From positions 1 to 64,000 of the IMG/VR virus record IMGVR_UViG_3300025919_000136: a stretch of DNA of 64,000 nucleotides. One strand, written 5' to 3'. The translations under genes were made by a program, and so were the position numbers. The stretch comes from a virus. Of this stretch, positions 1 to 63,503 are shown one piece after another. The notes below the pieces were generated by a model. The model was not told where the DNA came from. It did not search any database and worked only from the letters and a program-made list of their open reading frames with translations. Every line of letters begins with the position of its first letter. Within the stretch, counting starts at the first letter, position 1.

Positions 1-1008
1 ATGAGCGCACCAGCTATTAACATTATTGGTGGGGATCAAGCAATTGTACGCTTCCTGCCCGAATCTACGGACCTAGGAGTATACCCGTTCTCCAGCATGC
101 CCAATCCATCGACAGGGCCTGGAGGCACGCCGCAGTTAATGGGCATCACGCGGGTGCCGCAGAAAGACCGTCAGCGGAGCAACAAGAAGCTGTTCTCTGC
201 CGGTTCTCCATTCGGTATCGCCAACGTTCGTGGCGTGCGGGCGTACATGGTGAACGTAGAGATCAATATTGCGAACCTCGCAGTGTTGGCTTACTGCGTT
301 CGCAACGGATACAATAACAGCGTCCAGACTACCGGCTATAAAGGTCTGCCCGACTTATGTTTGTTCATCGACTACGTAGATACCTACGGTGAAGGCAACG
401 GCTATTCCTGGATGATCCGCTATGCCAAGTGCGATACAGGCTCCATCTCCATCCAGATGAATGGGCCGGAAATCACCGCTCAACTTCGCTTCATTGGCAT
501 CGCGGAGTATCCGAATGGTTCTCCACTTTCGATGACGATGGCTCAGTTAGATACCGCCATCCGCACCTTCGGTGAAGCCCTGACATACCACCACTTAGTG
601 TCGCTCACAGTGGGCAGCGACCTCCGCCCAATCCTGAGCGGTATCAACTATCAGTTCAACAACAACGTTCACGGATCGCAAGCTGCGCGGCCATCTTCTG
701 GGAGCGATGCTCGCCTATGGAACACGCACTACTCGCTGAAGCCTGGGAACCTGAATGCTTCCGCAGACTTGTCCTTGGATAGTGATATTCCAGCTGCGCT
801 GGCCACAAGTGCTTTCACTTCGGACGCGTGGGGCGACATCATCGCTACCATCAATAACTACGGTACGGGCGGGGCCAAGCAACAAGTAATTACCTTGACG
901 GACGCACTGCTAGGCACCGACTCCGCTGGCGGCGGAGACTCTGGCCAGGATATACCGTTCTCTGCTAACGTGACCGGCGATGCACTGGTAATTGCGAATA
1001 CGTACTAG
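1..1008 (+). CDS. Probable major tail (tube) protein
   Basis: 335-aa ORF directly upstream of a frameshifting chaperone pair and tape measure; call is from synteny. Confidence 0.6.
   Translation: MSAPAINIIGGDQAIVRFLPESTDLGVYPFSSMPNPSTGPGGTPQLMGITRVPQKDRQRSNKKLFSAGSPFGIANVRGVRAYMVNVEINIANLAVLAYCVRNGYNNSVQTTGYKGLPDLCLFIDYVDTYGEGNGYSWMIRYAKCDTGSISIQMNGPEITAQLRFIGIAEYPNGSPLSMTMAQLDTAIRTFGEALTYHHLVSLTVGSDLRPILSGINYQFNNNVHGSQAARPSSGSDARLWNTHYSLKPGNLNASADLSLDSDIPAALATSAFTSDAWGDIIATINNYGTGGAKQQVITLTDALLGTDSAGGGDSGQDIPFSANVTGDALVIANTY
689..714 (-). repeat. 28-bp dispersed element copy (intragenic)
   Basis: ggccatcttctgggagcgatgctcgc, read as RPSSGSDAR. Confidence 0.75.
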
Positions 1009-1019
1009 TAGTTTAGAAA

Positions 1020-1112
1020 GCCAATCTTCTGGGAGAGATGCTCCGCGTTCTTGGCTGTAAGCAACCTTGGTTCGCTAGCAGTGTGTGCGGAGATCTCTCC
1101 CAGAAGAGGGCC
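1020..1112. repeat. Inverted pair of the 28-bp element, GCGG ends facing (1020-1047 -, 1087-1112 +)
   Basis: gccaatcttctgggagagatgctccgcg and gcggagatctctcccagaagagggcc. Confidence 0.9.
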
Positions 1113-1141
1113 ATAAAATCCACCGAGAAAAGAGTACCAAG

Positions 1142-1699
1142 ATGACTGATGTATCCGAGAAGATGGCCGAAGCCGCAGCGAACGATCCCGAGAGCCAAGC
1201 CTACCTAGAGCGCAAGGCCCGCGAAGCTGAACAACAGCAAACCAAGTCCGTTGTCGGTGATACCAAGCGGTTGAAGTTCACTTCGGTAAACGGCAAGCAG
1301 ATGAAGTACACCACGCGCCCCTCGCAGCGCAATCAAGATACCTACGAACTTGCCATCCACCTGGAACCTGGGTTCGCCGTGGCCATCGATGCGTTGGATG
1401 ACATCCCGCTGAAGGAACGTACTCGCGAACTCCAGCGCATCCAGGCAGAAGGTCGCGACCTAGCCAAAAGCGAAGATCTTGCCGCAGCGTATACCAGGGC
1501 CGACGAACTCGCCGATGAGGAAAAGGCCCTCTACGTAGAGGTCATTCGATCGCAATGCAAAGGCTGGACCAACCTAGAACCGTTCGACATCGAGGCATTG
1601 CTGGCGGATCTGAACGTGATTGGCCGCACTACACTCGGGGACGAAATCATTGGTTCTTCCTCGACCGGTCGTCCGGGCACCGTTCCGCTAAAAAACTGA
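1142..1699 (+). CDS. Tail assembly chaperone (G-like)
   Basis: Acidic helical ORF between tail tube and tape measure, ending CTA AAA AAC TGA. Confidence 0.75.
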   Translation: MTDVSEKMAEAAANDPESQAYLERKAREAEQQQTKSVVGDTKRLKFTSVNGKQMKYTTRPSQRNQDTYELAIHLEPGFAVAIDALDDIPLKERTRELQRIQAEGRDLAKSEDLAAAYTRADELADEEKALYVEVIRSQCKGWTNLEPFDIEALLADLNVIGRTTLGDEIIGSSSTGRPGTVPLKN

Positions 1700-1950
1700 C
1701 CTACCGGGTCGTTGAACAGGGTGAACCGGCACTCCAGAAACTTGGTCGTGGAGAGACTCAAGCTGATATAGACCTACTGAAAGACTTCCTGTGGTCCTTA
1801 GGCTCACCGGAAGTCTTTTGTTTAGATGAAATGACACGAGATAACCAACTCCGTCTACGTGAACTGGCAGTTTCCTGGCATTTGAACCAAGCACATATCA
1901 TGTTCGACATCAGGAAACTTCTACTCAAGTTGCTGAATAAGCCTGTCTAA
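1690..1950 (+). CDS. -1 frameshift extension of the tail chaperone (GT-like)
   Basis: Slippery heptamer A AAA AAC at 1690-1696; the -1 frame (ORF 1555-1950) stays open to 1950. Confidence 0.75.
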   Translation, partial: KKLTYRVVEQGEPALQKLGRGETQADIDLLKDFLWSLGSPEVFCLDEMTRDNQLRLRELAVSWHLNQAHIMFDIRKLLLKLLNKPV

Positions 1951-1977
1951 CCACTACTACCGCTACCGCTACCGCTA

Positions 1978-3804: not shown

Positions 3805-5685
3805 ATGGGAAGCTTCGATAAGCCCATCATCGGTGGCAAGCAATACTATCGCGTGACGGCGAATGCGCTGCCAGCCACGGACAGCAAGTGGGCGGGGCTA
3901 TATGCACCAACCATTACCAACATGAACGATGGGGATTGGTTCCTCTTCCCTTCAGGCGGCGAAAATAACTACGACGGTTTCTATACACACTTCGACACCT
4001 TCACGATAGACCTGCTATCGATCCCCACTACGATTAGTACCTTCGTGCCCAACGTCCACAACCCTGCAGGTTATGTGGTGACAGTTGGGCCAGCCACCTT
4101 CAGTATTGCTATCGATGCGACTGGATTCAACTTACCACTACTGGGATTGCTCTACTTCAAGTACGGTGGAATTCTTTACAGAGCCTACGTACAATTCTAC
4201 AAGTTCTTCTTCGGACGCGGAGTTGACTTCCACTTCGTAGTACTGTCTGGTAGTGCGATGGACCGTAGGATCACGATCGATTTCGTGACAGACCCGGATA
4301 GTGTACACCAAGCCACCACGGTAGACTGGCAGCTGATTGGCACGGACGGCAGCGTCACACACTTAGGTAACAATAAGCTGCTGGATGTGAACCTGACACC
4401 CTCTCAGTCTGGAGTGTATAACCACTATACCATATCGTCTGGTTTTGGATTCCCGGTCGCCCCGTACATCCAAGCAGTATGTAATAATGCCTTGAATGAA
4501 GGCCCTGGACAACTTCTCCCACCTACGTTCGGCCTCAACTACTTCGTTCCCGTTGCGAAGCTGAAGGTGGATAATGGCACAAACCTAGGTTCCGGCAACT
4601 GGAGCGTGCCGGACACACTCGCTATCCTGGACGCGTCTGATTCGTTCGACCCGGACGGGACCATCGTGAACTATCACTGGATGATTGGTTCTCCCGTCCA
4701 GAAGACGTACGACACCACAAATCCCGTTCTTCCGTTGGACTTCGATGAAGGCTTCAAATCACTAATCCAAGTGCAGGTGACCGACAACGAAGGCTTCCAA
4801 GCTACCAGCCCGTTTATCTCACTCCAGGTGGGTATTCGTGCGCGACTACTATACAACAAGCACCTGCGCGCCCTACATTACTTCTACGCGGATGCCTCGA
4901 TGAACGTGCTATGCGCGAGCAGCCTGAATCTGACCAGCTTCGATATAGCTTCGGCTGTCAAGACCTATTTTCTAGGACACGGAGTTAGCTCCTTGGCAGC
5001 CTTCATGATAGGCTCCATGCCTGTCGTGGCATACTCGACTTCGGACTATGGGATTCGCTTGTGCTACTCGAAGGACCACGGAGCCTCGTTCACGAATGTT
5101 GCCCTCTTCCCCAGCGCTATCCTTCGCGGAGGACTTTACAACGAGCATACCCGCTCCCTGTTCATGCTTGGGGTATCGGTGACTGGTGGGCCTATTCGCC
5201 GCTTCTGCGCTCGGTACAACGGTATGAACTGGACTACTGATGATATCACTGATATCCCATCGCTGCCCTCGACAGGCGTGGCGAATTGGCATCTTTTCTG
5301 GAGAGGATCCACGCTCACAGTTGTAGTGGAGCATGACGCTGTAGTTGAAATGTACGCTTCCACCGATGATGGCTATACCTTCACCCTACAGCACTCCATC
5401 GAGGGTGGCTATAGCCCGATGAGCGCCAGGTGGGATCAGCACACACTATCTGCCTTCATCCTGTCCAGAAAAACGGGCGCTGAAGTTTACCGCATCGTGG
5501 CCCGTACTAATGGCGCTGGCATATGGGACCACGATGATATAGCCACGGTAGACGGCCTAGTGGCCGACTCTACGGGACTTGCCCACGAGCTAGGCCAAGG
5601 GTCCGTCTATGCGATCTCACGCGCTGGCGCTGTGCTGAACGCAGTTATTAGTACCGACGAAGCATATAGCTATAGTGGTATCTAA
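3805..5685 (+). CDS. Tail protein with PKD domain and Asp-box (BNR) repeats
   Basis: DASDSFDPDGTIVNYHW...VTDNEG (PKD); SKDHGASF, STDDGYTF, STDEAYSY (Asp-boxes). Confidence 0.7.
   Translation: MGSFDKPIIGGKQYYRVTANALPATDSKWAGLYAPTITNMNDGDWFLFPSGGENNYDGFYTHFDTFTIDLLSIPTTISTFVPNVHNPAGYVVTVGPATFSIAIDATGFNLPLLGLLYFKYGGILYRAYVQFYKFFFGRGVDFHFVVLSGSAMDRRITIDFVTDPDSVHQATTVDWQLIGTDGSVTHLGNNKLLDVNLTPSQSGVYNHYTISSGFGFPVAPYIQAVCNNALNEGPGQLLPPTFGLNYFVPVAKLKVDNGTNLGSGNWSVPDTLAILDASDSFDPDGTIVNYHWMIGSPVQKTYDTTNPVLPLDFDEGFKSLIQVQVTDNEGFQATSPFISLQVGIRARLLYNKHLRALHYFYADASMNVLCASSLNLTSFDIASAVKTYFLGHGVSSLAAFMIGSMPVVAYSTSDYGIRLCYSKDHGASFTNVALFPSAILRGGLYNEHTRSLFMLGVSVTGGPIRRFCARYNGMNWTTDDITDIPSLPSTGVANWHLFWRGSTLTVVVEHDAVVEMYASTDDGYTFTLQHSIEGGYSPMSARWDQHTLSAFILSRKTGAEVYRIVARTNGAGIWDHDDIATVDGLVADSTGLAHELGQGSVYAISRAGAVLNAVISTDEAYSYSGI
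5288..5314 (-). repeat. Degenerate 28-bp element copy (intragenic)
   Basis: ggcatcttttctggagaggatccacgc. Confidence 0.5.
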
Positions 5686-8648: not shown

Positions 8649-8699
8649 CGCGAAGGACTCTCTCCAGAAGATGGCCGCTCTTCTGGGACAGGTCTCCGC
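8649..8699. repeat. Inverted doublet of the 28-bp element sharing GGCC
   Basis: cgcgaaggactctctccagaagatGGCCgctcttctgggacaggtctccgc, intergenic. Confidence 0.9.
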
Positions 8700-8721
8700 C
8701 TAACTCGTATAGGATACCACC

Positions 8722-11764: not shown

Positions 11765-11818
11765 GCGGAGCACTCTCTCCAGAAAAACGGCCCCATCTTC
11801 TGGACAGGATGCTCCGCG
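11765..11818. repeat. Inverted doublet of the 28-bp element at the convergent operon junction
   Basis: gcggagcactctctccagaaaaacGGCCccatcttctggacaggatgctccgcg. Confidence 0.9.
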
Positions 11819-12221: not shown

Positions 12222-14341
12222 TCAGCCCTCCGAACCTTCACGCGCCTAATACTAGGCTTAGTTGGTGGGGTGACCTTCTTCAGCCCAGCCGCTTCCCACA
12301 GATTTGCCACATGATCCGTGGCACCATACAAGTAACGCGGAGCGCCCCGCCCAAACGGATTCTCCGTTCGTGTCTTGGTGACGGCTCCCAGCAAGTAGAG
12401 ATCCTCTAGTTGGTCGCGCAGAGTCGTCAATGGGATATCCAACTTCTCGCACAGTGGTTCAATGAAGAAGTCTCCATCGTTACAAAAAGCTGCCACAGCT
12501 TCTAGGTTGAATCCTACGCAAGTATCCAGTGCTACCCGGCTCACTATGGCGTAGTTGTCCTCGTCCAGTTTGGGCACGTGGGATAGGAGCGACAGTCCGT
12601 AGGTCAACTTGGTAAGCTGCTTGCCAATGCGGGTACCCATCTCGTGCTGGGGACGGTACTGCAACTTCTCTTGCCCTCCCGACCACGCTCGGTTCACGTT
12701 AGCGCGAAGGATGCCGACCAGCGAAGCTAAAGCGACGATCTTCGTGATGAGCCACTCAGGCATCGTTGGCAGAGAGTATGGATCGATCTTGACTTCAACG
12801 AACCGCTGGACGATTTCGTGCAGTCCTTCGCGCATGCCAATCTCGTGACCTACGTTGCCAATGGCCGTGCGAATGGCCGCGTCCGCGTTGGGATTGTGTC
12901 CAACTCCCTTGACCAAGTGGAACATCAAGAACCGCTCGCCTAGGGCTGCGGTTCGCTCACCGAACACGGCATGAGTGACGCCGCTGATCATGTTGAATTG
13001 AACTTCATAGTTGCGCACCAATCCGTTCCCATAGTGCTTGGTGACAGAACCGTCGTAGGCACCGCGTAGGGTGCCGTAGATTTCGTCACGTTGGGTGGAG
13101 GGGAGGTTCAGGATCTCGGTGAAGTCCTTCAGTACGAAGGTCTTCTTGTTCAGCTTAGGTAGCAAGGATGGATCACCACCACCCCGCGTGGCAAATCCCG
13201 AAACCAAACTATGTGCCGTTAAGGTACTAGCGAAGTAGCACGACGGGCAACCACTAAGGGGCATCAGGAGTTCCGTTTTCGCGGTTCCTGGAGGGGATAC
13301 GATATGCATCCAGAGCGGATCACCACCAATCTGGTTCGAGAGTACCACCGCGAAGATTAGCTTGAGCCCCGTCACCATATCGTCCGACATCTTCAAGTGC
13401 TGACGGAACACAGCCAGGACTTCCTCGAAGGTTGGACGATCCGTGGAGTCTGGAGGCGGAAGCGATTCTATGTGGGCAGCTTGCTCCGCCTGTTCGTTTA
13501 TGTCGGCTTCGGAAACGTAGGTGGTTACTAGGGACTGCAATTCTTCGTAAGTGCCACCAGCAACCACGAAGTCCCGGACATCAAACTTGTTAGGTAGTGA
13601 CTCAGGCCACTTGAGGTGCAGAAACTGAGTGGCATGTCCGGCCAACTTGCCCGACAATCTATCAGTGCCTTTTACTCCACCCAAGTCATGGTCGTAGCAG
13701 CAGATGACGGTCCGCCCCGACACATACTCCGACCAGCGCTCCTTCCATACTCCCGCTCCAGGGACTCCTATCACGCAGCCAACTTCGTTGGCTGTCTCCA
13801 GAAGATGGCGCAACGCGATGGCATCCCATTCGCCCTCGCAAATATATACTGGTTCGCAGGATTTTTCTAGATCCAGCAGGGCAGATAGGTTCCATATAGA
13901 GAGTTCCAGTCCCCAAATGGATTCTAGCTTGAAATCTTCACCGCACCTGCGGAAGTTAACAATCTTGCCGTGGCCATTGTAGATTGGGATGTACCAATGG
14001 ACCCCATCGTGGACGACTCCGGTTTGTTGTAGGACTTGAGGCGGTAGGTGGCGGCTAGCAGCCAGTTCGGCTAGCCATTCGGGTATTGGAGTGGTAATGG
14101 GTAGGTGGTACATTTTGTACCACTCCGCTAAGAATGTATAGGTATTACCGTTCAACCCACAGGAGCCAGCCTTGCAATCCCACTGGCCCGTTGCGGCGTT
14201 GATGTACAGCTTCTTGCGTCCTCCACAAAAGAGGCAGTCGCCGTAGTATTCGTCTCCCGCATGATTGTCCGCGTGATATTCGAAGCCTAATGCGATGAAC
14301 GGTCTAAGTTTGGGAGGAACTTCGGATGAGCTCCTCGCCAT
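12218..14341 (-). CDS. Primase-helicase fusion: Zn finger + TOPRIM + MCM-like AAA+ ATPase
   Basis: CLFC...CKAGSC; EGEWDA, YDHDLGG (TOPRIM); IVSPPGTAKTELL, ALGERF, GTRIGKQL (MCM-like); start coupled by TAATG overlap. Confidence 0.8.
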   Translation of the reverse strand: MARSSSEVPPKLRPFIALGFEYHADNHAGDEYYGDCLFCGGRKKLYINAATGQWDCKAGSCGLNGNTYTFLAEWYKMYHLPITTPIPEWLAELAASRHLPPQVLQQTGVVHDGVHWYIPIYNGHGKIVNFRRCGEDFKLESIWGLELSIWNLSALLDLEKSCEPVYICEGEWDAIALRHLLETANEVGCVIGVPGAGVWKERWSEYVSGRTVICCYDHDLGGVKGTDRLSGKLAGHATQFLHLKWPESLPNKFDVRDFVVAGGTYEELQSLVTTYVSEADINEQAEQAAHIESLPPPDSTDRPTFEEVLAVFRQHLKMSDDMVTGLKLIFAVVLSNQIGGDPLWMHIVSPPGTAKTELLMPLSGCPSCYFASTLTAHSLVSGFATRGGGDPSLLPKLNKKTFVLKDFTEILNLPSTQRDEIYGTLRGAYDGSVTKHYGNGLVRNYEVQFNMISGVTHAVFGERTAALGERFLMFHLVKGVGHNPNADAAIRTAIGNVGHEIGMREGLHEIVQRFVEVKIDPYSLPTMPEWLITKIVALASLVGILRANVNRAWSGGQEKLQYRPQHEMGTRIGKQLTKLTYGLSLLSHVPKLDEDNYAIVSRVALDTCVGFNLEAVAAFCNDGDFFIEPLCEKLDIPLTTLRDQLEDLYLLGAVTKTRTENPFGRGAPRYLYGATDHVANLWEAAGLKKVTPPTKPSIRRVKVRRAE

Positions 14342-15324
14342 TAGATAGTTGCTCCCTCCAGAAGTAAGCCACACTCGCGCAACTTATCCAGCAGATAGCT
14401 TCCCATGCAGTCGTCCACTAACTTCATGGTGGTGCCGAGTTCGTCGTAGGAGGAAATCCACGAAGGCTTGAGTGGTTCAGGGAAGTACTGCTTCGCCCCT
14501 TCAATCCAGCCTTCGCGGATCCACCGGCCAAGTTGCTCAGCAGTGGGACGGTCCCTCATAGCTAGTTGGGCAAGGTCCGGCAGGGTTAGCCCGGTGTTCT
14601 TCTGGACCTGAACCACACGATCATCCCAGAGGGATTGCATGCGGAAGTCCTTTACGTTCGTCACCGGCAATTCCAAGCCAATGTGCTTCTCGCACCACTT
14701 CTCCACTACGTCTCGAGCCTTGGAAGCATCCCTCGTGGGGTCGTCGCGGACAGATACCCGACTAGTAAAGATGCGCACGTCGTGGCCGTTGTAGAGCCAT
14801 TCGCGGACACGATCTACCATAAGCGGGATCGGTTCGCCAATGTGGTTGATCCCCTTCCAAGCGTCATACTCGGCCAAGGTACCGTCCAAGTCCACTCCAA
14901 TCCAACCATGACGCTTAACCATCTCTCCCAGAAAAACGGACACCCCACTTCCACCGAATGTGGAAGCGTGGGCGGCGTTGGTTGGGTGTGTAGTGTCAGG
15001 AGTACCTGCCATCCACAAATAAATGTCCTTGGCCCCTTCATACATGCGAAGGTAGCTACAAAACTTCGCTAGCTCTAGGCTAGGGCGGACTATATTTTCT
15101 GGCTGGAGGAAGTATTCCTGTCTGAGCGCGAACATCTTCGCGGTGCCTGCGGGCGTCCACATCAACATCTGGTGCATGCGATCCGAACGGACCTTGCGAA
15201 TGGCGAATAGGCAGCCATCATACTGCCCAACGCCACTGGTAATTTGGAAGCGGTGATCGGCTTCCTCGAGTTGGATGCCTTTTGGCTGTGGGGCTGGTTG
15301 CGGGACTTCAGTTGTCTGACACAT
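14341..15324 (-). CDS. Multi-domain protein with HAD phosphatase (PNK 3'-phosphatase-like)
   Basis: WIGVDLDGTLA, IFTSR, K...LWDDR HAD motifs. Confidence 0.7.
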   Translation of the reverse strand: MCQTTEVPQPAPQPKGIQLEEADHRFQITSGVGQYDGCLFAIRKVRSDRMHQMLMWTPAGTAKMFALRQEYFLQPENIVRPSLELAKFCSYLRMYEGAKDIYLWMAGTPDTTHPTNAAHASTFGGSGVSVFLGEMVKRHGWIGVDLDGTLAEYDAWKGINHIGEPIPLMVDRVREWLYNGHDVRIFTSRVSVRDDPTRDASKARDVVEKWCEKHIGLELPVTNVKDFRMQSLWDDRVVQVQKNTGLTLPDLAQLAMRDRPTAEQLGRWIREGWIEGAKQYFPEPLKPSWISSYDELGTTMKLVDDCMGSYLLDKLRECGLLLEGATI

Positions 15325-17742: not shown

Positions 17743-17793
17743 CGCGGAGATCTCTGCCAGAATACGGCCCCATCTTCTGGACAGAGTCTCTGC
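17743..17793. repeat. Inverted doublet of the 28-bp element upstream of the polymerase
   Basis: cgcggagatctctgccagaatacGGCCccatcttctggacagagtctctgc. Confidence 0.9.
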
Positions 17794-18111
17794 CTATAGT
17801 TCCCAGAACTTGTCGTACAATGCTAGTGTGCTCGCCCGTTCGTCGAGCGACATAGCCCGAAGTAGGTTAATACAGCGCTGGCACACATCGGCAAGGTGAG
17901 TGGATTCGCTTGGATCGGTTCGCGCTAGGTTTACTTGCTGCTGGCAGAAGTCTAGGTGCTCGTCTTCAAGGTTCCAGTCATCGATTACGATATGCAGGTG
18001 GCCACCAGTACTGTGCAGCTTGTATACCTCAGCGATCGCGGTGGCCGCCTGGTATACTAACGTAGATTGTATGGTTGGCGATCCATACTCCTGCCAGCAA
18101 CCATAGCACAT
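17794..18111 (-). CDS. Hypothetical protein (GGHLHIVIDDWN motif)
   Basis: ATG coupled to the SDR stop (TAATG). Confidence 0.6.
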   Translation of the reverse strand: MCYGCWQEYGSPTIQSTLVYQAATAIAEVYKLHSTGGHLHIVIDDWNLEDEHLDFCQQQVNLARTDPSESTHLADVCQRCINLLRAMSLDERASTLALYDKFWEL

Positions 18112-20514: not shown

Positions 20515-20541
20515 GGGCGGTTTTCTGGGCAGAGTCTCCGC
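20515..20541 (-). repeat. 28-bp element copy (intergenic)
   Basis: gggcggttttctgggcagagtctccgc. Confidence 0.75.
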
Positions 20542-21164
20542 TACAGACTAATGGAATGCCCTGCCCGCTTCATGATTTCCTTAACGAGATCTATCGTCTG
20601 GTCAACTAATGGACGGATGAAGTCGTATCGAGGGTTCATGAATATGGCGGTGTAGTCGCGCATAGTTTGGTAGTTCTCTACCACAGTGGAGTTAGCGTTC
20701 GTGACCTCCGCGTAGAGGTAGCTTACTACGGATAGGTAGTCGGCGAAGGCCACGATGGCCCCTTCATTAGTGGAGTCCTTCGCGTTGGCCCACATTACCG
20801 CCATGCGCGTGGCGTAGGTTGGTTCGTCGAACAGACTGAGAACGAGAGCCTCGATCTCTTGCTCGGCGGCTGCATCCAGCATGTCTTTGAGTTGCGGATT
20901 GGAGTATTTGAACGGGCGTTGAAAATCGCCTGTGCGGGCTTCGTCCATGTCATGGATTAACGCACGGCGGAGCACTTGGAGTTCATTGATGTCGCGGCGC
21001 TCCGTCTCCTTGCGAATCCAGTCGCAAATGAACATAGAGTAGATGGCGACGTACGCCGTATGCTCCGCTACTCCCTCTCGGTGCAATACCAAGCTGGTCG
21101 AATGTCTGGTAACGTATCTTAGCCTGTTAACATCTCCGGTTAACATAACTCTAATGTTTAGCAC
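20541..21164 (-). CDS. HD-domain deoxynucleotidase (YfbR/DatZ-like)
   Basis: VTRH, EGVAEH, ALIHDMDEARTGD, FADYL. Confidence 0.85.
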   Translation of the reverse strand: MLNIRVMLTGDVNRLRYVTRHSTSLVLHREGVAEHTAYVAIYSMFICDWIRKETERRDINELQVLRRALIHDMDEARTGDFQRPFKYSNPQLKDMLDAAAEQEIEALVLSLFDEPTYATRMAVMWANAKDSTNEGAIVAFADYLSVVSYLYAEVTNANSTVVENYQTMRDYTAIFMNPRYDFIRPLVDQTIDLVKEIMKRAGHSISL

Positions 21165-35167: not shown

Positions 35168-35172
35168 GGTGG

Positions 35173-35199: not shown

Positions 35200-35200
35200 T

Positions 35201-42093: not shown

Positions 42094-42512
42094 TGTAGTT
42101 TTGGGCCGTCCTCTGGGAGAGATGTCTCCGCGTCAATATTCGGTGTGGGCGTGGTCTTGGGCGGAGCTAACGCTGCTACGTTTTCTAATGCTTGACGAGC
42201 GATGGATTTCAGATAGTTTGGGTCGTTGGCGTTGTAGATGGCCATAACTCCGTTCAGGCGGTGGGTTGGTGGCAGCTTGCGTATGATGGCGGCAATAGGA
42301 TCTACGATATCTTGTAGTGCTTGCGTAGCTAATTCAAGTTGGCGGTTAGCGGTGGTGGCGTTCCATTTGGTTGTAGCTAGTTCGGGTGTGGGTGCGGAGG
42401 GGCCGGTTGCGTCGCAGGTGTAGCAACCGGTCTGGACGTTGCCGTTGGATAAGGAGGCGTAGGATGGGTCTGTGTCGGTAGAGCCGCAGAAGGGGCAGGG
42501 GTTGGGTTTCAT
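42090..42512 (-). CDS. Lar-like (restriction alleviation) Zn-finger protein
   Basis: PCPFCGS...CYTCDATGP...KWN. Confidence 0.7.
   Translation of the reverse strand: MKPNPCPFCGSTDTDPSYASLSNGNVQTGCYTCDATGPSAPTPELATTKWNATTANRQLELATQALQDIVDPIAAIIRKLPPTHRLNGVMAIYNANDPNYLKSIARQALENVAALAPPKTTPTPNIDAETSLPEDGPKLQ
42103..42132 (-). repeat. 28-bp element copy (gene 3' end)
   Basis: gggccgtcctctgggagagatgtctccgcg, read as AETSLPEDGP. Confidence 0.9.
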
Positions 42513-44932: not shown

Positions 44933-44948
44933 CGCGCCTCCACCAGAA

Positions 44949-45009
44949 ATTATGCCTCAATTTGAAGCGGCTGCGGGGACTGGGAGAAAATAAATCGAAG
45001 GTTATTTTC
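44949..45009 (-). promoter_or_regulatory. Repeated promoter copy 2 (divergent)
   Basis: GAAAATAA..TTATTTT tracts and GGCATAAT. Confidence 0.55.
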
Positions 45010-45037
45010 ATACCACCATGAGTATAGATTTGATTTT

Positions 45038-45065
45038 GGCCGTTCTCTGGGAGCGATACTCCGCG
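45038..45065 (-). repeat. 28-bp element copy, left flank of the non-coding centre
   Basis: ggccgttctctgggagcgatactccgcg. Confidence 0.85.
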
Positions 45066-45322
45066 TCGGGCGGGCCGTTTGGGGCCGGTAAGGCGGGTGG
45101 TCGTTCGCTACCCCACGATTCTTTTGATTGGTAAGGCGCAAAGCTGGGCTGGCCTAAACGCTTTTACGGAATTCGAGCAAATCGAGCAATAACTTTAAAA
45201 CGGCGTTTCGACCCCACGTACAGCCTTCGTTTCTGGGCGAATTTCGTAGATTTCCATCGGTGGCTTCGTGGGTCTACAACGCCGTTTAAATGCTTATTAC
45301 CCGATTTAGCCATAAATCGACT

Positions 45323-45711
45323 AAATCGGTCAACCCGTCTAAAAACGGCTGGGGGCGCGAAGACGGATGGCGCTCATGAAAACGCGTTATTTGTCGTATT
45401 TTCCGGTTTTGGTCGTATTTTGTGTTTTCGTATTTTTAGGCTTTGAAAATCTTGTTTTTTCGTAATTATTTACTAAACTTGACCATATCTTCAGATATGA
45501 TATTTATAAAATATAATATGACAAAAAGCAGACAGCGCATGACGAACGATACCACCAATTAAGGAGTCGACGCTGGACTCCCTGTTGCCGCTAACTTAAG
45601 ACGGATCAAGCAGAAGCCGGGCTGGCTCTTTTGGCTCAAACGATTTTGTAGAAAACAGACGCGCCATCCGTCTTCACCCCCCCAGCCGTTTTTAAGCGGT
45701 TTTACCGATTT
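45323..45711. other. Candidate origin (or terminus / packaging site): 51-bp inverted repeat around an AT-rich core
   Basis: Arms 45323-45373 and 45661-45711 match 45/51; TCGTATTTT x3; AT-rich 45440-45530. Confidence 0.6.
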
Positions 45712-45795
45712 GGCCCAAAACCGATATTCCGTAAATCCGCCAAAACCGCCCACTTCGCGCCCCCGCCCAACCCACCATCATTCGCTAACTATCAA

Positions 45796-45824
45796 CGCGG
45801 AGGATCTCTCCCAGAAGATGGGCC
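45796..45824 (+). repeat. 28-bp element copy, right flank of the non-coding centre
   Basis: cgcggaggatctctcccagaagatgggcc. Confidence 0.95.
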
Positions 45825-45860
45825 AAAAGAAAACCCCAGCAGCGCATAGCTGCTGGGGTT
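45825..45860 (-). terminator. Rho-independent terminator
   Basis: 12-bp stem aaccccagcagc/gctgctggggtt followed by a U-tract on -. Confidence 0.85.
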
Positions 45861-45878
45861 CACTCCGCCGACCACACC

Positions 45879-47199: not shown

Positions 47200-47228
47200 C
47201 GCGGAGCATTCTGCCCAGAGGATGGGCC
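47200..47228 (+). repeat. 28-bp element copy
   Basis: cgcggagcattctgcccagaggatgggcc, abuts a stop codon. Confidence 0.9.
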
Positions 47229-48553: not shown

Positions 48554-48582
48554 GCGGAGGTATCTCTCCCAGAAGATGGGCC
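48554..48582 (+). repeat. 28-bp element copy
   Basis: gcggaggtatctctcccagaagatgggcc. Confidence 0.95.
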
Positions 48583-51207: not shown

Positions 51208-51216
51208 GGTGTAGTG

Positions 51217-51241
51217 TGGATCCTCTCCAGAAGACGGGGCC
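51217..51241 (+). repeat. Degenerate 28-bp element copy
   Basis: tggatcctctccagaagacggggcc. Confidence 0.7.
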
Positions 51242-52544: not shown

Positions 52545-52571
52545 GCGGAGGTATCTCCTCCAGAGAATGGG
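52545..52571 (+). repeat. 28-bp element copy
   Basis: gcggaggtatctcctccagagaatggg. Confidence 0.75.
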
Positions 52572-52574
52572 AGT

Positions 52575-54224: not shown

Positions 54225-54522
54225 CCTTGAACTTAGCCAGCCCTAGCATCAGCGCCCGGCACACTTCCTGTCCGCTATATGCCCCGGCGGAGATCCGGTC
54301 CAGAAAAGTGGGCTCCGGGATTCCGAGGGCCTCCGCCGTCCACATGGCCGCATCGAAGCCGTACCTTGGCAACGCCTGGACGATGGCTTTCTGGCGGATT
54401 GGGTCGTCCCAGTCGCGTACCTTGTTCAGTGCCACATAGAGGTTGTGTTGGGCTTCTGGCGGCCACTCCGCAAGTAAGGCCGTGGCCTCCACGAACTGCT
54501 TGATTTGAAGGTGGTTCATCAT
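54187..54522 (-). CDS. Early hypothetical protein
   Basis: ATGA overlap. Confidence 0.55.
   Translation of the reverse strand: MMNHLQIKQFVEATALLAEWPPEAQHNLYVALNKVRDWDDPIRQKAIVQALPRYGFDAAMWTAEALGIPEPTFLDRISAGAYSGQEVCRALMLGLAKFKDELEHGESIEDD
54287..54313 (+). repeat. Degenerate 28-bp element copy (intragenic)
   Basis: gcggagatccggtccagaaaagtgggc. Confidence 0.65.
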
Positions 54523-56087: not shown

Positions 56088-57110
56088 CTAGCTAGCGGCC
56101 TCCGCGAAGAACTGATCCAACGCCCGCCCACTCAGCGAACAACCCATTAGCAACTCCGGAGCAATGTGGCCTTCGTACCGCATGGGATGGCGGCGGGATT
56201 TCTTGGTGGGTTTGGGTGTGGGAGCACATTGAATGGCAGGCTTTGCGGCACGCCCACGCGGAGCATCCGTCCCAGAAGAGGGGCCATCTACGTTCAGCTT
56301 CGCCACAACCTGATGGCGAATCTCTACACGATCCGGCGCACGCTCGTAGACTGGATAGGAATTCAATACATTCTGGACTTCCTGCTGGATCTCGGCTTCG
56401 GTTGGGGCCAACGGCAACGGATCGCTTAGATCGATCGCCGGGACTTCCACGGCCACCGCCCCACCATGCTGCGGGTGGGGCAAGCCGTAGTGCTCGGCGC
56501 AGACCGGGCCGTAGCCAACTTCCACGGAACCTTCCTCTTCCAGCGTCCGACTGCAGAAGCAACAGGCCCCTAGCAGCTTGCCATACTCGGCGGCAACTTG
56601 TACCGGGTTGGCGGCGAACCGCAGCACTACTTCGCGAATGGCAGGAGTCATGGACTTGCCCTCCACCAGACGGCCATCAGGGTCGATGCGCCCGAACCAG
56701 GTACGGTCTTCGTATGAACCGGACGAGACAACCGAGAGGGATTGTGGGTGCTTGCTAGCCGAAGTATTCGGCAAGATGCGGAAGTCTACAACCTCCCCGG
56801 ACGGGGTGGTGGCTTGCAGCCGAACCTTGGGTCGCTTGAGTGCTTTGGCAGCCACCGCAAATAACTCGTAGATTTTGGCGACTTCGCCAACGGAAATGGG
56901 GGTGGACTTGGCGGCATCCATGGCCAGCTTGTGTACCCACCACCATTGTTCGCTGCTCAGTTGGCCCTTAGAGGTGAAGTCCGCGACCAACTTCGCGGCG
57001 AAGGAGTCGGGTTTACCTTCGGCCAACCCTACCAACGCTTCCATAGCTTCCCGGTACGTAAACGGCGATTCCAACGTTCCCCGCTTGCCTGCTACACGAT
57101 TCCGAATCAT
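56088..57110 (-). CDS. DUF6011-containing protein
   Basis: CCFCSRTLEEEGSVEVGYGPVCA; AAGGAGG site. Confidence 0.7.
   Translation of the reverse strand: MIRNRVAGKRGTLESPFTYREAMEALVGLAEGKPDSFAAKLVADFTSKGQLSSEQWWWVHKLAMDAAKSTPISVGEVAKIYELFAVAAKALKRPKVRLQATTPSGEVVDFRILPNTSASKHPQSLSVVSSGSYEDRTWFGRIDPDGRLVEGKSMTPAIREVVLRFAANPVQVAAEYGKLLGACCFCSRTLEEEGSVEVGYGPVCAEHYGLPHPQHGGAVAVEVPAIDLSDPLPLAPTEAEIQQEVQNVLNSYPVYERAPDRVEIRHQVVAKLNVDGPSSGTDAPRGRAAKPAIQCAPTPKPTKKSRRHPMRYEGHIAPELLMGCSLSGRALDQFFAEAAS
56257..56285 (+). repeat. 28-bp element copy (intragenic)
   Basis: cgcggagcatccgtcccagaagaggggcc, read as GPSSGTDAPR. Confidence 0.9.
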
Positions 57111-57912: not shown

Positions 57913-58116
57913 CTAAACATTGCGGGCAACGGCTTCGCCCATTTCTTCGTGAAACCACTCGGCCATCGCCGGGATTTCGAGCAACCGGGCAACCTCTTCG
58001 AGGATCACGATTTGATTTTCCTCACCTTCGCACAGATTCGGCTTCGCGCGCAAGGTTTGCGCCTTTTCGCGGCAGGCCAGGATGACCAATTCGGTGGTTC
58101 GGGTTTCGACGATCAT
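57913..58116 (-). CDS. Early hypothetical protein
   Basis: Single gene between promoter copy 11 and a terminator. Confidence 0.55.
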   Translation of the reverse strand: MIVETRTTELVILACREKAQTLRAKPNLCEGEENQIVILEEVARLLEIPAMAEWFHEEMGEAVARNV

Positions 58117-58161
58117 GGATTTCTCCCAGAAAACCGGCGCTACATTCTGCCGGCACCAAAC

Positions 58162-58635: not shown

Positions 58636-58680
58636 TTGACCTATATTCTGGAGCGAGCACCCCCCAAACTGCTCGCTATT

Positions 58681-58708
58681 CGCGGAGCATCCTGCCCAGA
58701 GGATGGCC
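58681..58708 (+). repeat. 28-bp element copy
   Basis: cgcggagcatcctgcccagaggatggcc. Confidence 0.9.
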
Positions 58709-58815
58709 CAACCATTTAAAGCGGTCTAGCAGCCGGTTTAAAGCGACTTTATAGCAGTAGGCCTTAGTGGTCCGGGGGCGCGAAAATCGTTTTTACGGCT
58801 CTATACGTCAAAAGG

Positions 58816-61249: not shown

Positions 61250-61674
61250 TGGCCATAATAGACCCTGGATGGAACCGAGCCAACTTCAGCTCCGACCCAT
61301 TCCGTCTCATGTTCGACAATTACTTCCTTCGAACCGGGACGCGCCACCCAGCAGACCCCAAGTACAAGGAATGGCAGGAAGCACAAAGCGTACCACCTGG
61401 CAACCCTTCGGCTGGACGTGGAGCATCTCCTCCAGAAGATGGGCCAAAATCCAAAGTTCCATACGTATCGCTAGAGGTTCGCAGGGCTGCAGATTTTCTG
61501 GCAGCGAACTCGACGGTGCGCTCTGACTACATAACCACATCGCCAGAGCGAATGAAAGCGGCTTTCCGCGAAGCGACTCAGAAGTTACGCCCCGACCTTG
61601 GCCGCAACCACGAAGCTTCGGTTCAGTTGAACGCAGCCTACGCCACGCTGAAGCGATTCCATGGTGTTCGGTGA
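61249..61674 (+). CDS. Protein with C-terminal J-domain-like module (RPD in place of HPD)
   Basis: MKAAFREATQKLRPDLG...VQLNAAYATLK. Confidence 0.6.
   Translation: MAIIDPGWNRANFSSDPFRLMFDNYFLRTGTRHPADPKYKEWQEAQSVPPGNPSAGRGASPPEDGPKSKVPYVSLEVRRAADFLAANSTVRSDYITTSPERMKAAFREATQKLRPDLGRNHEASVQLNAAYATLKRFHGVR
61417..61445 (+). repeat. 28-bp element copy (intragenic)
   Basis: cgtggagcatctcctccagaagatgggcc, read as RGASPPEDGP. Confidence 0.9.
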
Positions 61675-62008: not shown

Positions 62009-62722
62009 ATGAAGGGCAACCAACTCGAAGGTGACGGAACTTGGTCGTGGTTAAAAGTCGAGGTTGATGGCGCTGACCTGGTGCTGCGTAGTGCTACTTC
62101 CACTTGGTTCGGTGGCGCTCACGATCCTGAGGACTCCGGTGCTACGGCTAGCGGCGTCTCCACGAAGTTGCACCCTGACATATTGGGATGCGCACTCCCC
62201 ATGGCCGGATTCGGTCATGCTACGCAAGGTTCCCCGATTCCCCGCTTGCCGTGGCACACCCTCGTGAAGGTCTTCTGCTACGAGACGCACAAGGAAGTGG
62301 AGGTCGAACTCATCGATCTCGGCCCTTCCAAGTACACCCACCATGGGCTGGACTTGACTGTAGCCGCCTTCGCGGAGTTGGGCATTTCGCTGGACCAGGG
62401 AACTTGTCGCTGCGATGCCCGCATTGTGGATGGGGCGCGGCACATTAAAGGCTTCCACGCGGCGCTAAGCGGCGTAGTGGAAGGGGCCGAACTAGCCAAC
62501 GGCGAACCGCAGCCGGACTATAATCCACAGCGAGTCTTGCCGCTGGAGGAGTCCGAGGAAGAGCCCACTAACGAAGCGGACCCGAACCACGGGATTCCCG
62601 CCTCCGTGCTACGCGGAGCGTCTCGACCCAACTTAGTTGAGAGTGGCACTCCAGCCACCGCGAACGACCAAGCGGACACAGACGGAGTGGCGGAACCAGC
62701 TACTTCCACCACCACCGACTAA
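62009..62722 (+). CDS. RlpA/DPBB-like lytic enzyme with acidic tail
   Basis: STWFGG, CALP, VELIDLGP, LDLTVAAF. Confidence 0.6.
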   Translation: MKGNQLEGDGTWSWLKVEVDGADLVLRSATSTWFGGAHDPEDSGATASGVSTKLHPDILGCALPMAGFGHATQGSPIPRLPWHTLVKVFCYETHKEVEVELIDLGPSKYTHHGLDLTVAAFAELGISLDQGTCRCDARIVDGARHIKGFHAALSGVVEGAELANGEPQPDYNPQRVLPLEESEEEPTNEADPNHGIPASVLRGASRPNLVESGTPATANDQADTDGVAEPATSTTTD

Positions 62723-62725
62723 CCC

Positions 62726-63283
62726 ATGCTCGATACCCTCACCCAGAAAATACGCGAGTTCTTCGCACCGCAGCCCGTTGCGGCCAACCATGGCATGTCG
62801 CGCCCTCCGGGAATGCAAGTTCACGAGTGGGAAGCGTACCTGGCAGCTTGCGCGGAAGCAGGCGTATCGCCAGATAGAATCATCCAGGTAGTAGGGGATG
62901 CACCCGCTTCCCAAGGCTTCCACCTACCGGACGGCAGATTCACTAACTCCAACGGCCAACTTGAAGACTATACTGCGGCGCTGGACCTTTCCGTCAAGCA
63001 CCCTAACGGACACTTGACGGTCGAACAGATTAAGCGACTCCTTGACTGTCTAGCGAAGCGTGGGTTCATTGGTTGGTATCGGCCCTGGGGCGATAACGAG
63101 CACATTCACGTCGTCTACTGCGGATTGCCGATGAAGGAAAAGCTGCGCAACCAAGTACATGACTGGTTCAAGCACTTGGACGGTTTAGTGGACCACTCCT
63201 ATGATGGATTCGTGTTGCCGACCGCAGCCGAGATGAACTTCTGTCGGGCATTGTTCTTGGCCCACAACCCGGCGAACGGGTAG
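62726..63283 (+). CDS. M15-like zinc peptidase endolysin
   Basis: SQGFH...ALDLS...EHIHV (H-D-HxH). Confidence 0.6.
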   Translation: MLDTLTQKIREFFAPQPVAANHGMSRPPGMQVHEWEAYLAACAEAGVSPDRIIQVVGDAPASQGFHLPDGRFTNSNGQLEDYTAALDLSVKHPNGHLTVEQIKRLLDCLAKRGFIGWYRPWGDNEHIHVVYCGLPMKEKLRNQVHDWFKHLDGLVDHSYDGFVLPTAAEMNFCRALFLAHNPANG

Positions 63284-63292
63284 AGGTATATT

Positions 63293-63466
63293 ATGGTTGC
63301 TGCTATCGTCGAGATCATCTTCATCGGTCTGATTGTATGGGCGGTGAACGCCTTCCTACCCATCCCAGCCACCTTCAAGAACATCGTTATGTTCCTCGGA
63401 GTGTTGGCCGTCATCATGGTACTGTGGGGCTTATTCGGCGGACACCCAATCGTATCGGTTCGATAG
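63293..63466 (+). CDS. 57-aa two-TM membrane protein (not in ORF track)
   Basis: MVAAIVEIIFIGLIVWAVNAFLPIPATFKNI..., GAGGT site. Confidence 0.6.
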   Translation: MVAAIVEIIFIGLIVWAVNAFLPIPATFKNIVMFLGVLAVIMVLWGLFGGHPIVSVR

Positions 63467-63475
63467 GAATGGTCA

Positions 63476-63503
63476 GCGGAGGACCTGTCCCAGAAGATGG
63501 GCC
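63476..63503 (+). repeat. 28-bp element copy (intergenic)
   Basis: gcggaggacctgtcccagaagatgggcc. Confidence 0.9.

Follow-up and report, generated by a model that had tools for sequence, protein, structure and literature searches.

Why should the genome of an uncultured soil phage contain about 50 evenly spread copies of one asymmetric DNA word of 28 bases? The word, GCGGAG-N(6-9)-CCAGARGAnGGSCC, was noticed in a sequence-only reading of the window, a stretch of 64,000 nt from a virus record of 88,424 bp (G000), as a bipartite element occurring genome-wide, inside and between genes. Copies were scored with a 34-nt position weight matrix, derived from the motif copies and used in a fixed register, with a cut-off of at least 14 bits. 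The element is real: 30 of the 31 coordinates initially listed coincide, within 1-4 nt, with copies reaching the cut-off, and the remaining one (37378..37404, plus strand) is a true copy with a 6-nt spacer, which scores only 8.9 bits because the register of the matrix is fixed. The spacer varies by about 1 nt, with a full range of 6-9 nt.

The window holds 36 copies of at least 14 bits and the whole record 50, one site per 1.8 kb, against 0-1 in shuffles (0 in five mononucleotide shuffles). The 14-nt half CCAGAAGATGGGCC, with up to two mismatches, has 23 matches in the window compared to 0.69 expected, the largest value in any shuffle being 3. The excess also persists over the codon-preserving shuffle that the first reading had asked for: 30 runs left 3-9 matches each. 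In 40 further codon-preserving shuffles matches fell at 14 of the original intragenic places, since much of the DNA sequence is dictated by the peptide xGASLPEDGP, and just 8 other places gave matches, 1-2 times each. The excess is therefore real.

Selection keeps the motif at the DNA level, even inside genes. The four peptides quoted in the sequence-only reading (GASLPEDGP, GPSSGESAPR, AEISPREAA and EPTFLDRISA) are correct, but the different frames and strands of the intragenic copies, offered there as proof of a constraint on the nucleic acid, are insufficient alone; the proof comes from divergence at synonymous sites. The collinear relative G001 (about 80% nucleotide identity) carries 52 copies, and 35 of the 50 copies of G000 have their counterpart at orthologous places. 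At codon position 3 the core differs between the two genomes by 16.7% (25/150) against a background of 35.7% (binomial p = 2e-7), and in spacers between genes by 12.1%, the flanks differing by 26.8% (Fisher p = 2e-9), which confirms the constraint itself. Moreover, the segment of TerL overlain by a copy aligns without gaps to nine TerL sequences (that of G001 and eight more distant homologues, 37-49% identical), and therefore this copy, the sole intragenic one compared with distant homologues, arose by substitution and not by the clean insertion that had been envisaged for orthologous genes. Codon choice produced it within a conserved stretch of the terminase.

The copies left of a gene-free hub at about 45 kb occupy very different contexts. 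Near the left end, a minus-strand copy (688..715; 33 bits, weaker orthologue in G001) lies inside the plus gene 1-1008. The intergenic copies 1019..1046 (minus; 36-39 bits; core identical in G001, flanks with indels) and 1086..1113 (plus; 31-32 bits; identical in G001; 28 nt before the ATG at 1142) form a divergent pair, and 5288..5315 (minus; 23-25 bits; orthologue in G001) is inside the plus gene 3805-5685. Four overlapping inverted doublets, at 8.66, 11.8, 17.75 and 83.8 kb, are all far from the hub and sit at gene boundaries. In the window they are composed of 8650..8677 (plus, intergenic) and 8673..8700 (minus), folding at -21.1 kcal/mol (z -2.1); 11765..11792 (plus) and 11790..11817 (minus), at the convergent gene junction 11737/12012, folding at -28.1 kcal/mol (z -4.3) and also a doublet in G001; and 17743..17770 (plus) and 17767..17794 (minus), between two minus genes, folding at -27.1 kcal/mol (z -3.9). 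Several sites first taken for half-sites (13794, 14919, 25039 and 58117) proved to be weak copies of 15-22 bits, whereas 2560 scores 12.6 bits and 27681 and 36995 are marginal (10.8 and 6.8). These weak copies, all on the plus strand, extend over 13784..13811 (inside the primase gene; 15-16 bits), 14914..14941 (inside gene 14341-15324; 19-22 bits), where G001 carries an added inverted partner, 25033..25060 (intergenic; 15-16 bits) and 58112..58139 (22-25 bits).

A degenerate intergenic copy is found at 20515..20542 (minus; 23-24 bits), and G001 has an extra gene of about 350 bp beside its counterpart. Strong copies are located at 21710..21737 (plus; 40-42 bits; orthologue in G001), inside the minus gene 21687-22394 and read as GPSSGESAPR, at 23318..23345 (minus, intergenic; 39-43 bits) and at 34914..34941 (minus; 45 bits), inside a minus gene and read as GGASLPEDGP. 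Two intergenic copies lie at 31351..31378 (plus; 22-25 bits; orthologue in G001) and 31653..31680 (minus; 9-nt spacer; 27-30 bits), and 35172..35199 (plus; 33-35 bits) fills a 33-nt spacer between two minus genes. The minus-strand copies 38670..38697 (32-36 bits), 40534..40561 (37-39 bits) and 42103..42130 (9-nt spacer; 32-37 bits) are placed inside a minus gene, inside a small minus ORF and at the end of the minus gene 42090-42512, respectively.

The hub itself (44933..45878) contains an inverted repeat with 51-nt arms (45323-45373 and 45661-45711), three direct repeats of about 21 nt (45391-45445), an AT-rich core and overlapping divergent sigma-70-like promoter matches (45490-45524), the two best of the 19.5 kb scanned. 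The core with this promoter-like pair is conserved in three genomes; G001 and L058 keep the pair but not the direct repeats. On the left the hub is flanked by the copy 45037..45064 (minus; 32-33 bits), present also in G001 and L058, and on the right by the top-scoring copy 45797..45824 (plus; 44-46 bits), around which about 100 nt are nearly invariant across the three genomes. Each of the two outward leaders carries this inverted-repeat arm and, beyond it, a motif copy in the same sense.

To the right of the hub most copies of the window are on the plus strand. Those at 47201..47228 (33-36 bits; overlapping a stop codon, in a segment missing from G001), 48555..48582 (intergenic; 36-38 bits) and 52546..52573 (intergenic; 26-28 bits) are antisense to minus genes, and 51213..51240 (22-28 bits) fills a 40-nt spacer between two minus genes. 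The copies 54286..54313 (22-24 bits) and 56258..56285 (38-39 bits) are inside the minus genes 54187-54522 and 56088-57110, read as EPTFLDRISA and GPSSGTDAPR. They are followed by a weak minus copy (58638..58665; 16-17 bits) and by the plus copies 58682..58709 (intergenic; 36 bits), 61418..61445 (41-42 bits; inside the plus gene 61249-61674, read as RGASPPEDGP) and 63476..63503 (intergenic, 37 nt before the ATG at 63541; 38-42 bits).

Two properties of the array emerge at the scale of the genome. The sites are spaced more evenly than by chance: the null model gives a CV of about 0.92, and the observed values are 0.63 in G000 (P = 0.003) and 0.61 in G001 (P = 0.0016). Their orientation (31 plus and 19 minus over the 50 copies) ignores gene direction, only 25 of 50 being co-oriented with the local gene strand, and depends on the side of the hub: right of 45.4 kb there are 21 plus and 5 minus copies, and left of it 10 plus and 14 minus (Fisher p = 0.008), the left arm alone not being significantly polar (p = 0.54). 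Of the 10 copies, 9 in the minus-strand gene block at 45.4-60.5 kb, whose gene strand is confirmed by an excess of third-position substitutions, are antisense, and 12 of the 16 in the region 60.5-88.4 kb are sense. Segmentation by orientation places a breakpoint exactly at the hub in three of four runs. A two-breakpoint permutation test, which counts the permutations attaining the observed value, is significant only for the strong copies of G000 (58/2000) and for G001 (27 and 11/2000), whose test is not independent of that of G000; for the full set of single copies in G000 it is not significant (383/2000). Strong copies on the "wrong" strand at 1086, 21710 and 35172 are conserved in G001.

Taken as a general claim, the motif is probably a selected protein-binding DNA site, as the first reading had proposed; its conservation as DNA, the unstructured single copies without covariation and the in situ origin of the TerL copy all support this. 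About 70 of the 118 predicted genes were scanned against Pfam and/or PHROGs, and no DNA-binding protein was identified among them. Among the closest known systems are the 17-bp repeats of Cluster O mycobacteriophages, which have unknown function and exceed 30 copies genome-wide; roughly a third of them are intragenic, and related phages carry them in similar positions (PMC4351075). These are palindromic and have no meaningful orientation, whereas our motif is asymmetric and strand-biased.

Control of transcription offers a possible explanation, in which the effect of a bound regulator on RNA polymerase depends on the side from which the polymerase arrives. The site could work as a stoperator-like roadblock or "one-way valve", or else provide periodic licensing or antitermination. 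Outward transcription both ways from the hub would meet every site head-first, and the ORFan block at 45.9-60.3 kb, transcribed hubward, would meet them tail-first and be shut off or spared. The conserved promoter-like elements of the hub point towards transcription, as do its two similar leaders, the uniform orientation within each block and the position of the doublets at gene boundaries, one of them the convergent junction at 11.8 kb. In P1, operators lie at promoters and some of them are overlapping inverted pairs, like the doublets here. Precedents exist in phages: the P1 genome (about 94 kb) contains 22 asymmetric C1 operators of 17 bp at dispersed places (PMC8546580), and in Cluster A mycobacteriophages monomeric repressors of the L5 gp71 type, with two DNA-binding domains, bind more than 20 asymmetric 13-mers, whose reversal abolishes repression (PMC9283540). 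Like our motif, these Cluster A operators and stoperators occur in tens of copies genome-wide, in spacers and sometimes in genes, at conserved places; a stoperator is read by one protein, with an effect that depends on orientation (PMC9283540). However, they are 13-mers and their direction follows transcription, a rule that fails for a 28-nt bipartite motif with a variable spacer and half of its copies against the genes; and no repressor, HTH protein, sigma factor, integrase or lysogeny gene was found in the family scans. Compared to P1, the sites here are twice as many, evenly spaced and not enriched for an upstream -10-like hexamer (4 of 25 intergenic copies vs 13% in random spacer DNA). The minus copies at 688, 1019 and 5288 oppose late plus genes, distances to start codons scatter from 5 to 215 nt, intragenic copies do not prefer gene ends, misoriented roadblocks inside essential genes would do harm, and the outward-licensing variant requires 14.5 kb of antisense transcription. 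It is unlikely that the motif itself serves as promoter or initial transcribed region of a host RNA polymerase that a phage factor redirects, turning on middle and late genes as well as, in the ORFan block, antisense RNAs that switch off early genes. The density and length of the motif are comparable to those of the phage-specific promoters of T7-type phages, the spacer varies as in two-element promoters, a C-rich box is enriched upstream (CCCAA 12 times vs 2.9 expected, in 11 of 45 copies, mostly the top-scoring ones), and 10 intergenic single copies face a downstream gene start. But 11 intergenic single copies face the wrong way, overlapping convergent doublets would be senseless for promoters, the end of some copies is only 5-7 nt away from the start codon that follows, 23 of the 50 are intragenic at any relative position, -10-like hexamers are not enriched, and no phage RNA polymerase or sigma domain was found, in a search whose RNA_pol control was silent.

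Even less probable is the recognition sequence of a phage nickase that leaves virion DNA with single-strand breaks at defined sites, as happens in T5, phiKMV-like phages and phage tf. Such sites are dispersed asymmetric words, one of them bipartite (the phiKMV nick consensus is a 4 + N5 + 10 word, and tf has 14 nicks), which do not follow gene direction and keep comparable positions among related phages, but every case described has its 4-14 major sites in one strand (PMC3517423), against 50 sites here on both strands; no nickase candidate was found, and the only HNH domain lies within an intein. An RNA role, as a box with a small hairpin for nut-like antitermination or as a processing site in long transcripts, is very doubtful. 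The 3' half of the best copies can form CCCA-GARRA-UGGG, a 4-bp stem closing an all-purine pentaloop and preceded by a 6-nt box and an 8-nt spacer, a layout resembling boxA-spacer-boxB of lambdoid nut sites; of 99 distinct copies, 92 have GAAGA, GAAAA, GAGGA or GAGAA as the loop. Nevertheless, just 44% of the 99 copies form all three inner pairs, and each pair forms as often as expected from shuffles. The 5' arm is invariant, and changes in the 3' arm are not compensated. The proposed stems lack covariation, single copies are no more stably folded than shuffled sequence (z -0.4 to +0.7), Rfam has no family matching the motif, and half of the copies are antisense to genes. The tiny self-propagating element once considered, a selfish REP/REPIN- or MITE-like repeat with the doublets as its complete form, is the most improbable of all. 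Singlets combined with inverted doublets are reminiscent of REP and REPIN arrangements, some indels between G000 and G001 adjoin copies, and the motif is restricted to one lineage. Against it stand the orthologous copies with a core more conserved than the flanks, the TerL copy, the in-frame position of the intragenic copies, the absence of a hairpin in single copies, and the four doublets, where inspection by eye showed no consistent target duplication. When the spacer bias is kept, copies are not significantly associated with mosaic junctions (13 of 54 junctions, P = 0.28). Six-frame searches with Pfam Y1_Tnp and Phage_integrase revealed no transposase, as already noted from the sequence, and no tyrosine integrase; the motif is not repeated in any species-representative genome scanned, and no host with several copies emerged from them.

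Since the site is asymmetric and its direction is set by the side of the hub and not by the genes, we tentatively read the array as a direction-sensitive signal of replication or recombination, with the hub as the origin, a role placed slightly ahead of transcription control. Chi, KOPS and Ter are comparable in that their strand bias reverses at the origin, they disregard genes and they are distributed along the replichores; a Ter site is an asymmetric, protein-bound word of about 23 bp, but such sites are few in number and clustered at the terminus, and Chi and KOPS, of 5-8 nt, are read by host translocases. The motif differs from these in its 28 nt, in its density of one per 1.8 kb and in having only the right arm clearly polar, and GC skew shows no sign change at the hub. 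The comparisons suggested earlier, with stoperators, parS, Ter and KOPS, identify no system to which it belongs; the known polar words of replication or recombination, such as Chi and KOPS, measure 5-8 nt, and none is known from a phage. In the replication or recombination reading, one sequence-specific, probably phage-encoded protein would recognise the motif, probably through two DNA-reading parts, as proposed from the bipartite site with its variable spacer. Selection would keep a site roughly every 2 kb, codon choice building it in coding DNA where no free spacer is available. Machinery travelling outward from the hub, the replication or recombination apparatus being the first candidate, would read the array with the motif strand on the lagging-strand template of outward-moving forks, and the inverted doublets, in the half far from the hub, would work for forks from both directions. 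For this phage lineage, the array may therefore act in fork-polar pausing, in loading or priming, or in the control of a nuclease.

The dispersed motif is an asymmetric bipartite word whose consensus, obtained with an iterated weight matrix, consists of GCGGAG, 8 pyrimidine-rich nucleotides (approximately CATCTCTC) and CCAGAAGATGGGCC, with AAAA often following. Information peaks in CCAGA.GA and GCGGAG and spans about 28 nt in two boxes, and the spacer between the boxes varies from 6 to 9 nt. At a score of at least 14 bits the motif occurs 50 times in the 88,424-bp record G000, whose first 64,000 bases are the window, 36 of these copies being within the window, and 52 times in its collinear relative G001, while mononucleotide shuffles contain none. 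Matches to the 14-nt half-site, two mismatches at most being allowed, number 23 in the window against 0.69 expected. Thirty of the 31 places listed by the sequence-only reading are copies at the same threshold, and the one at 37378 has a 6-nt spacer. In codon-preserving shuffles the excess proved real, with new places appearing about 0.2 times per shuffle, but 3-9 matches per shuffle persist where intragenic copies already stood, much of the DNA there being dictated by the encoded peptide. Three unrelated metagenome contigs of 65% GC (L048, L049 and L053) each hold a single copy of one near-identical motif-like stretch, which is probably a conserved coding segment resembling the motif by chance.

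The genomic setting was drawn with a simple caller of our own (codon log-odds and greedy choice), whose crude calls give 118 genes in G000. Plus-strand genes occupy 1-11,737 and 60,872-88,424 and encode terminase, portal, major capsid, head decoration and other structural proteins; minus-strand genes fill 12,012-60,293. The latter include, at 12-37 kb, a replication module (Toprim primase, family A polymerase, UDG-like protein, AAA_24, DUF669, exonuclease and helicase) alongside a nucleotide-modification cluster, both on the minus strand, and at 45.9-60.3 kb a minus-strand block made exclusively of small ORFans. For two adjacent minus-strand genes, at 42090-42512 and 42787-43425, Pfam and PHROGs both give matches to Lar-like restriction-alleviation families. 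Within the ORFan block, a match to the Rfam type-P5 twister ribozyme (51933-51987, minus; 50.6 bits, gathering score 37.6, E 1.4e-7) sits in the gap between two small genes of the minus strand. From 32000 to 44000, C and A are strongly enriched on the coding (minus) strand, with a plus-strand GC skew of +0.13 to +0.32, and this composition is far more skewed than the remainder of the same gene block.

Among cultured phages, megablast with 44 kb of the window found no close relative, and the capsid protein is less than 35% identical to any record. G001 (85,035 bp) is collinear, with about 80% nucleotide identity across 67% of G000. Both ends of the G000 record are phage structural genes, and in G001 they are bridged by about 6 kb of additional structural genes; moreover, a contig of 94,285 bp, which exceeds the record by 5,861 bp, encodes an identical capsid protein. 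For these two reasons the 'provirus' label of G000 is probably a trimming artefact, and we infer a full genome of about 94 kb with about 6 kb of it outside the record. A 55%-identical capsid homologue sits on a 95,697-bp contig. Neither the motif nor any other obvious repeat was present in 17 loci found with this homologue or in 16 loci found with TerL (31-45% identity). A DNA polymerase search for distant relatives returned G001 alone, and the comparative statistics are drawn from this one full relative and fragments.

In G000 a 1052-aa protein (69292-72450) contains an intein (Intein_splicing, E 3e-40) bearing an HNH_3 endonuclease, and the G001 contig breaks around this region. Adjoining the terminase gene, a 532-aa protein (74385-75983) has a C-terminal match to an ADP-ribosyltransferase domain (E 1.4e-7); its gene is wholly missing in G001, which has 10 nt in place of 1779 nt.

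Motif copies are concentrated outside genes without being confined there. In fact, 27 of the 50 are not wholly within a gene, against a non-coding share of 12.7% in the record (binomial p 4e-12), and 23 are intragenic, at relative positions in the gene from 0.06 to 0.93. The reading frames used by intragenic copies yield small, flexible residues: the peptide xGASLPEDGP is encoded by 9 of the 13 sense copies and a GPSSGxxAPR-like peptide by 6 of the 10 antisense copies. Co-oriented intergenic copies lie 5 to 215 nt from the next start codon. A first impression that intergenic copies directly follow a -10-like hexamer and a TTCGCTA box was rejected, the hexamer not being enriched (it stands within 9 nt upstream of 4/25 intergenic copies, and random spacer DNA gives 13%). 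TTCGCTA itself occurs 25 times in G000 against 9.4 expected (2.6-fold), in the majority of cases in coding DNA and remote from the motif; a few of its copies stand 3-20 nt upstream of motif copies (1071, 11741, 25007 and 45781). C-rich words such as CCCAA are enriched immediately upstream of the top-scoring motif copies.

The comparison with G001 bears out the claim of the sequence-only reading that the constraint acts on the nucleic acid. A same-strand counterpart exists at the mapped G001 place for 35 of the 50 G000 copies, and closer alignment adds four more (11763, 11786, 20511 and 45033); copies lacking a counterpart lie in segments missing or replaced in G001. In spacers the motif core differs at 12.1% of positions (60/496) against 26.8% in the 25-nt flanks (149/555; Fisher p 2e-9), and several motifs, for example those at 1019 and 1086, are identical despite indel-rich flanks. 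Within genes, third codon positions of the core differ at 16.7% (25/150) against 35.7% genome-wide (p 2e-7). A copy at 73,504 in the large terminase gene shows how such a site can arise: it overlies the segment DLSGEILSRELGYEHLCLP, which aligns without insertion with DLSGHILSK-GGYEHLCLP-like segments of motif-less TerL homologues (37-49% identical), and therefore the site was made by substitutions and codon choice. Without this copy a gap of 5.3 kb would separate its neighbouring sites. On such sequence comparisons, the motif is probably a selected protein-binding DNA site.

The arrangement of the copies is also ordered. With copies no more than 100 nt apart merged, site spacing has a coefficient of variation of 0.63 (G000) and 0.61 (G001), where random placement would give about 0.92 (P 0.003 and 0.0016). 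Four pairs of copies form overlapping inverted doublets with the common sequence CCAGAAGA...TCTTCTGG, at 8.66, 11.8, 17.75 and 83.8 kb, and the predicted fold of each doublet is a long hairpin (-21 to -30 kcal/mol, z -2.1 to -4.6). Orientation does not follow the genes, since only 25 of the 50 copies point the same way as the genes of the block they lie in. At 45.9-60.3 kb, where an excess of substitutions at third codon positions (0.55-0.80) in the long minus ORFs confirms that the genes are on the minus strand, 9 of the 10 motif copies are plus. Overall G000 has 31 plus and 19 minus copies; to the right of 45.4 kb the count is 21+:5- (p 0.0025), to the left 10+:14- (p 0.54), and the two sides differ (Fisher p 0.008). 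All five minus copies of the right arm score at most 21 bits or are doublet partners. In a two-breakpoint segmentation the observed value was reached by 383/2000 permutations with all single copies and 58/2000 with strong copies in G000, and by 27/2000 and 11/2000 in G001, the two genomes being non-independent samples for orientation statistics; a breakpoint fell exactly between the same two neighbouring copies, at 45037 and 45797, in at least three of four runs. Given these strand counts and segmentation results, motif polarity holds for the right arm but is weak in the left one.

These two copies (45037-, 45797+) point outward from a hub at 44,933-45,878 that is free of genes in our calls. 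The hub contains an inverted repeat with 51-nt arms, 88% complementary and 287 nt apart, three direct repeats of about 21 nt and a core very rich in AT; of the sigma-70-like matches in the 19.5 kb scanned, the best two both lie in the hub, overlapping and divergent. In a three-genome alignment the promoter-like core, a stretch of about 45 nt after it and about 100 nt around the right-hand copy are conserved, the core and the surroundings of the copy being nearly invariant. The direct repeats are not conserved in this alignment, and the inverted arms differ in sequence among the three genomes while complementarity is retained within each. Adjoining the best motif copy, a strong terminator-like hairpin on the minus strand (45,831-45,861; 13 pairs, then a T-run) is likely the terminator ending the ORFan block. 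GC skew, taken as a sign of replication direction, does not switch at the hub. Judging from these features the hub may serve as an origin, as a divergent promoter switch or in both roles. Four of six rhizosphere DNA runs (assembled contigs) mapped to 38-58 kb: in the probable source run one 47-kb contig spans the hub, and the others gave short pieces; joints and loose ends at motif places resemble cross-mapping between copies.

Readings of the motif as RNA or as a selfish repeat are less probable than a site tracked by replication or transcription. Candidate RNA stems pair no more than shuffled columns; of the small CCCA-GARRA-UGGG hairpin seen in the best copies, the three inner pairs are all formed in only 44% of the 99 distinct copies, and changes in its 3' arm are uncompensated. 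Single copies fold as shuffles do (z -0.4 to +0.7), so that a boxB-like or other hairpin was rejected, and the conserved or covarying hairpin that accompanies the box in nut-type RNA is not found in the motif. At gathering score no Rfam family matches the motif, the twister-P5 ribozyme elsewhere being the sole match in the window. As to repeats, units of REP/REPIN families are imperfect palindromes that form hairpins, lie outside genes and have a cognate Y1 (RAYT) transposase. The motif differs in having no single-copy hairpin, 23 intragenic copies of 50 and no Y1_Tnp. The earlier remark that no transposase is visible holds for Y1_Tnp and tyrosine integrase, neither of which was found in six-frame searches, the one for Y1_Tnp having a control positive in seven genomes. 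Copies of a MITE arise by insertion, carry terminal inverted repeats and are flanked by target duplications; the TerL copy, the one intragenic copy compared with distant homologues, is not an insertion, and no target duplication common to the four doublets was seen by eye. Motif copies as recombination linkers were also rejected (13 of 54 mosaic junctions; P 0.055 for a naive null, rising to 0.28 when spacer bias is kept). A tiny self-propagating element, one of the two explanations first offered, is not supported, most copies being orthologous, the TerL copy having been built in situ and the junction link not being significant; the motif is not obviously mobile. Nor does it appear to be a host repeat: the strict pattern gave 12 single matches in 12 unrelated species-representative genomes, a collection that may lack the host, and in metagenomes multiple copies occur solely on fragments of the same phage lineage.

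The other explanation, a protein binding-site system, stands insofar as a selected DNA site fits it, but one of the comparisons offered with it, the stoperator, fails in orientation. Promoters of T7-type phage RNA polymerases are co-oriented with genes, and the polymerase gene is present; the motif differs in being co-oriented in 25/50 cases. No RNA polymerase domain is present in the large proteins of unknown function, and searches gave no match for sigma-70 region 2 or for RNA_pol (T7-type), the control for the latter being silent. A classical promoter was rejected on this co-orientation, the convergent doublets, the lack of -10-like enrichment and the lack of a phage RNA polymerase or sigma domain. 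P1 operators are known to include overlapping pairs. Dispersed operators of P1 type overlap promoters, unlike the motif (-10-like hexamer at 4/25 copies against 13%). Chi/KOPS-type words have 5-8 nt, are read by a translocating enzyme and switch strand bias at origin and terminus; the motif differs in its information of about 28 nt in two boxes, and for a switch of this type at the hub, a putative origin, the counts (21+:5- right, 10+:14- left) come with mixed permutation results. Cluster A stoperators are, like the motif with its 50 copies, asymmetric and dispersed in more than 20 copies, but their orientation follows transcription (PMC9283540), whereas only half of the motif copies are co-oriented; the defining rule of a strict stoperator model thus fails. 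Stoperators also go with a cognate immunity repressor and a temperate life style; among about 70 of the 118 predicted proteins, in Pfam and/or PHROGs scans that left out about 47 small ORFs, no HTH or repressor protein was found, and the family search for tyrosine integrase was negative. Nick sites of T5, phiKMV and tf, single-strand interruptions in virion DNA, are all in one strand (PMC3517423), unlike the 31+:19- of the motif; the promoter and nick-site readings are likewise less probable. An operator model without constraints on placement does not predict the even spacing and the right-arm polarity.

Two models in which a tracking machine reads the motif remain. Reading by replication or recombination machinery is possible and tentatively proposed: it fits the independence from genes, the spacing, the construction of sites within genes and the hub-distal doublets, and misoriented copies would be harmless, but the left arm is leaky and there is no skew switch. 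To our knowledge a polar word of this type has no phage precedent. Reading by the transcription machinery, an alternative only slightly less favoured, has good precedents in Cluster A stoperators (PMC9283540) and P1 C1 operators (PMC8546580), and the hub promoters are conserved and their leaders symmetric; however, it entails either misoriented roadblocks that would do harm in late genes or antisense transcription over 14.5 kb. A more specific form of the replication reading, which we consider unlikely, is a replichore-like phage chromosome in which a protein-read 28-bp word every 2 kb or so would program priming, pausing or reloading of the replisome. The word would lie on the template for lagging-strand synthesis at forks that move out from a central origin, its sites would set defined Okazaki starts or fork-polar checkpoints, and the inverted doublets would mark the zone reachable by forks from either side.

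Dispersed protein-binding words are known from a few phage groups, mostly without known function. The measurable additions made here are nucleotide selection at synonymous sites, a terminase site made by codon choice, an over-even spacing and a strand rule that is indifferent to genes and shifts at a central non-coding hub. Under either reading, the 28-mer may be used as bait for finding the protein and as a metagenome marker of this phage lineage. If the reader is an RNA polymerase, this uncultured and apparently lytic soil phage would possess a stoperator-like system whose orientation obeys another logic; if it is a replisome or recombination enzyme, the motif would be the first polar signal of chromosome architecture encoded by a phage.
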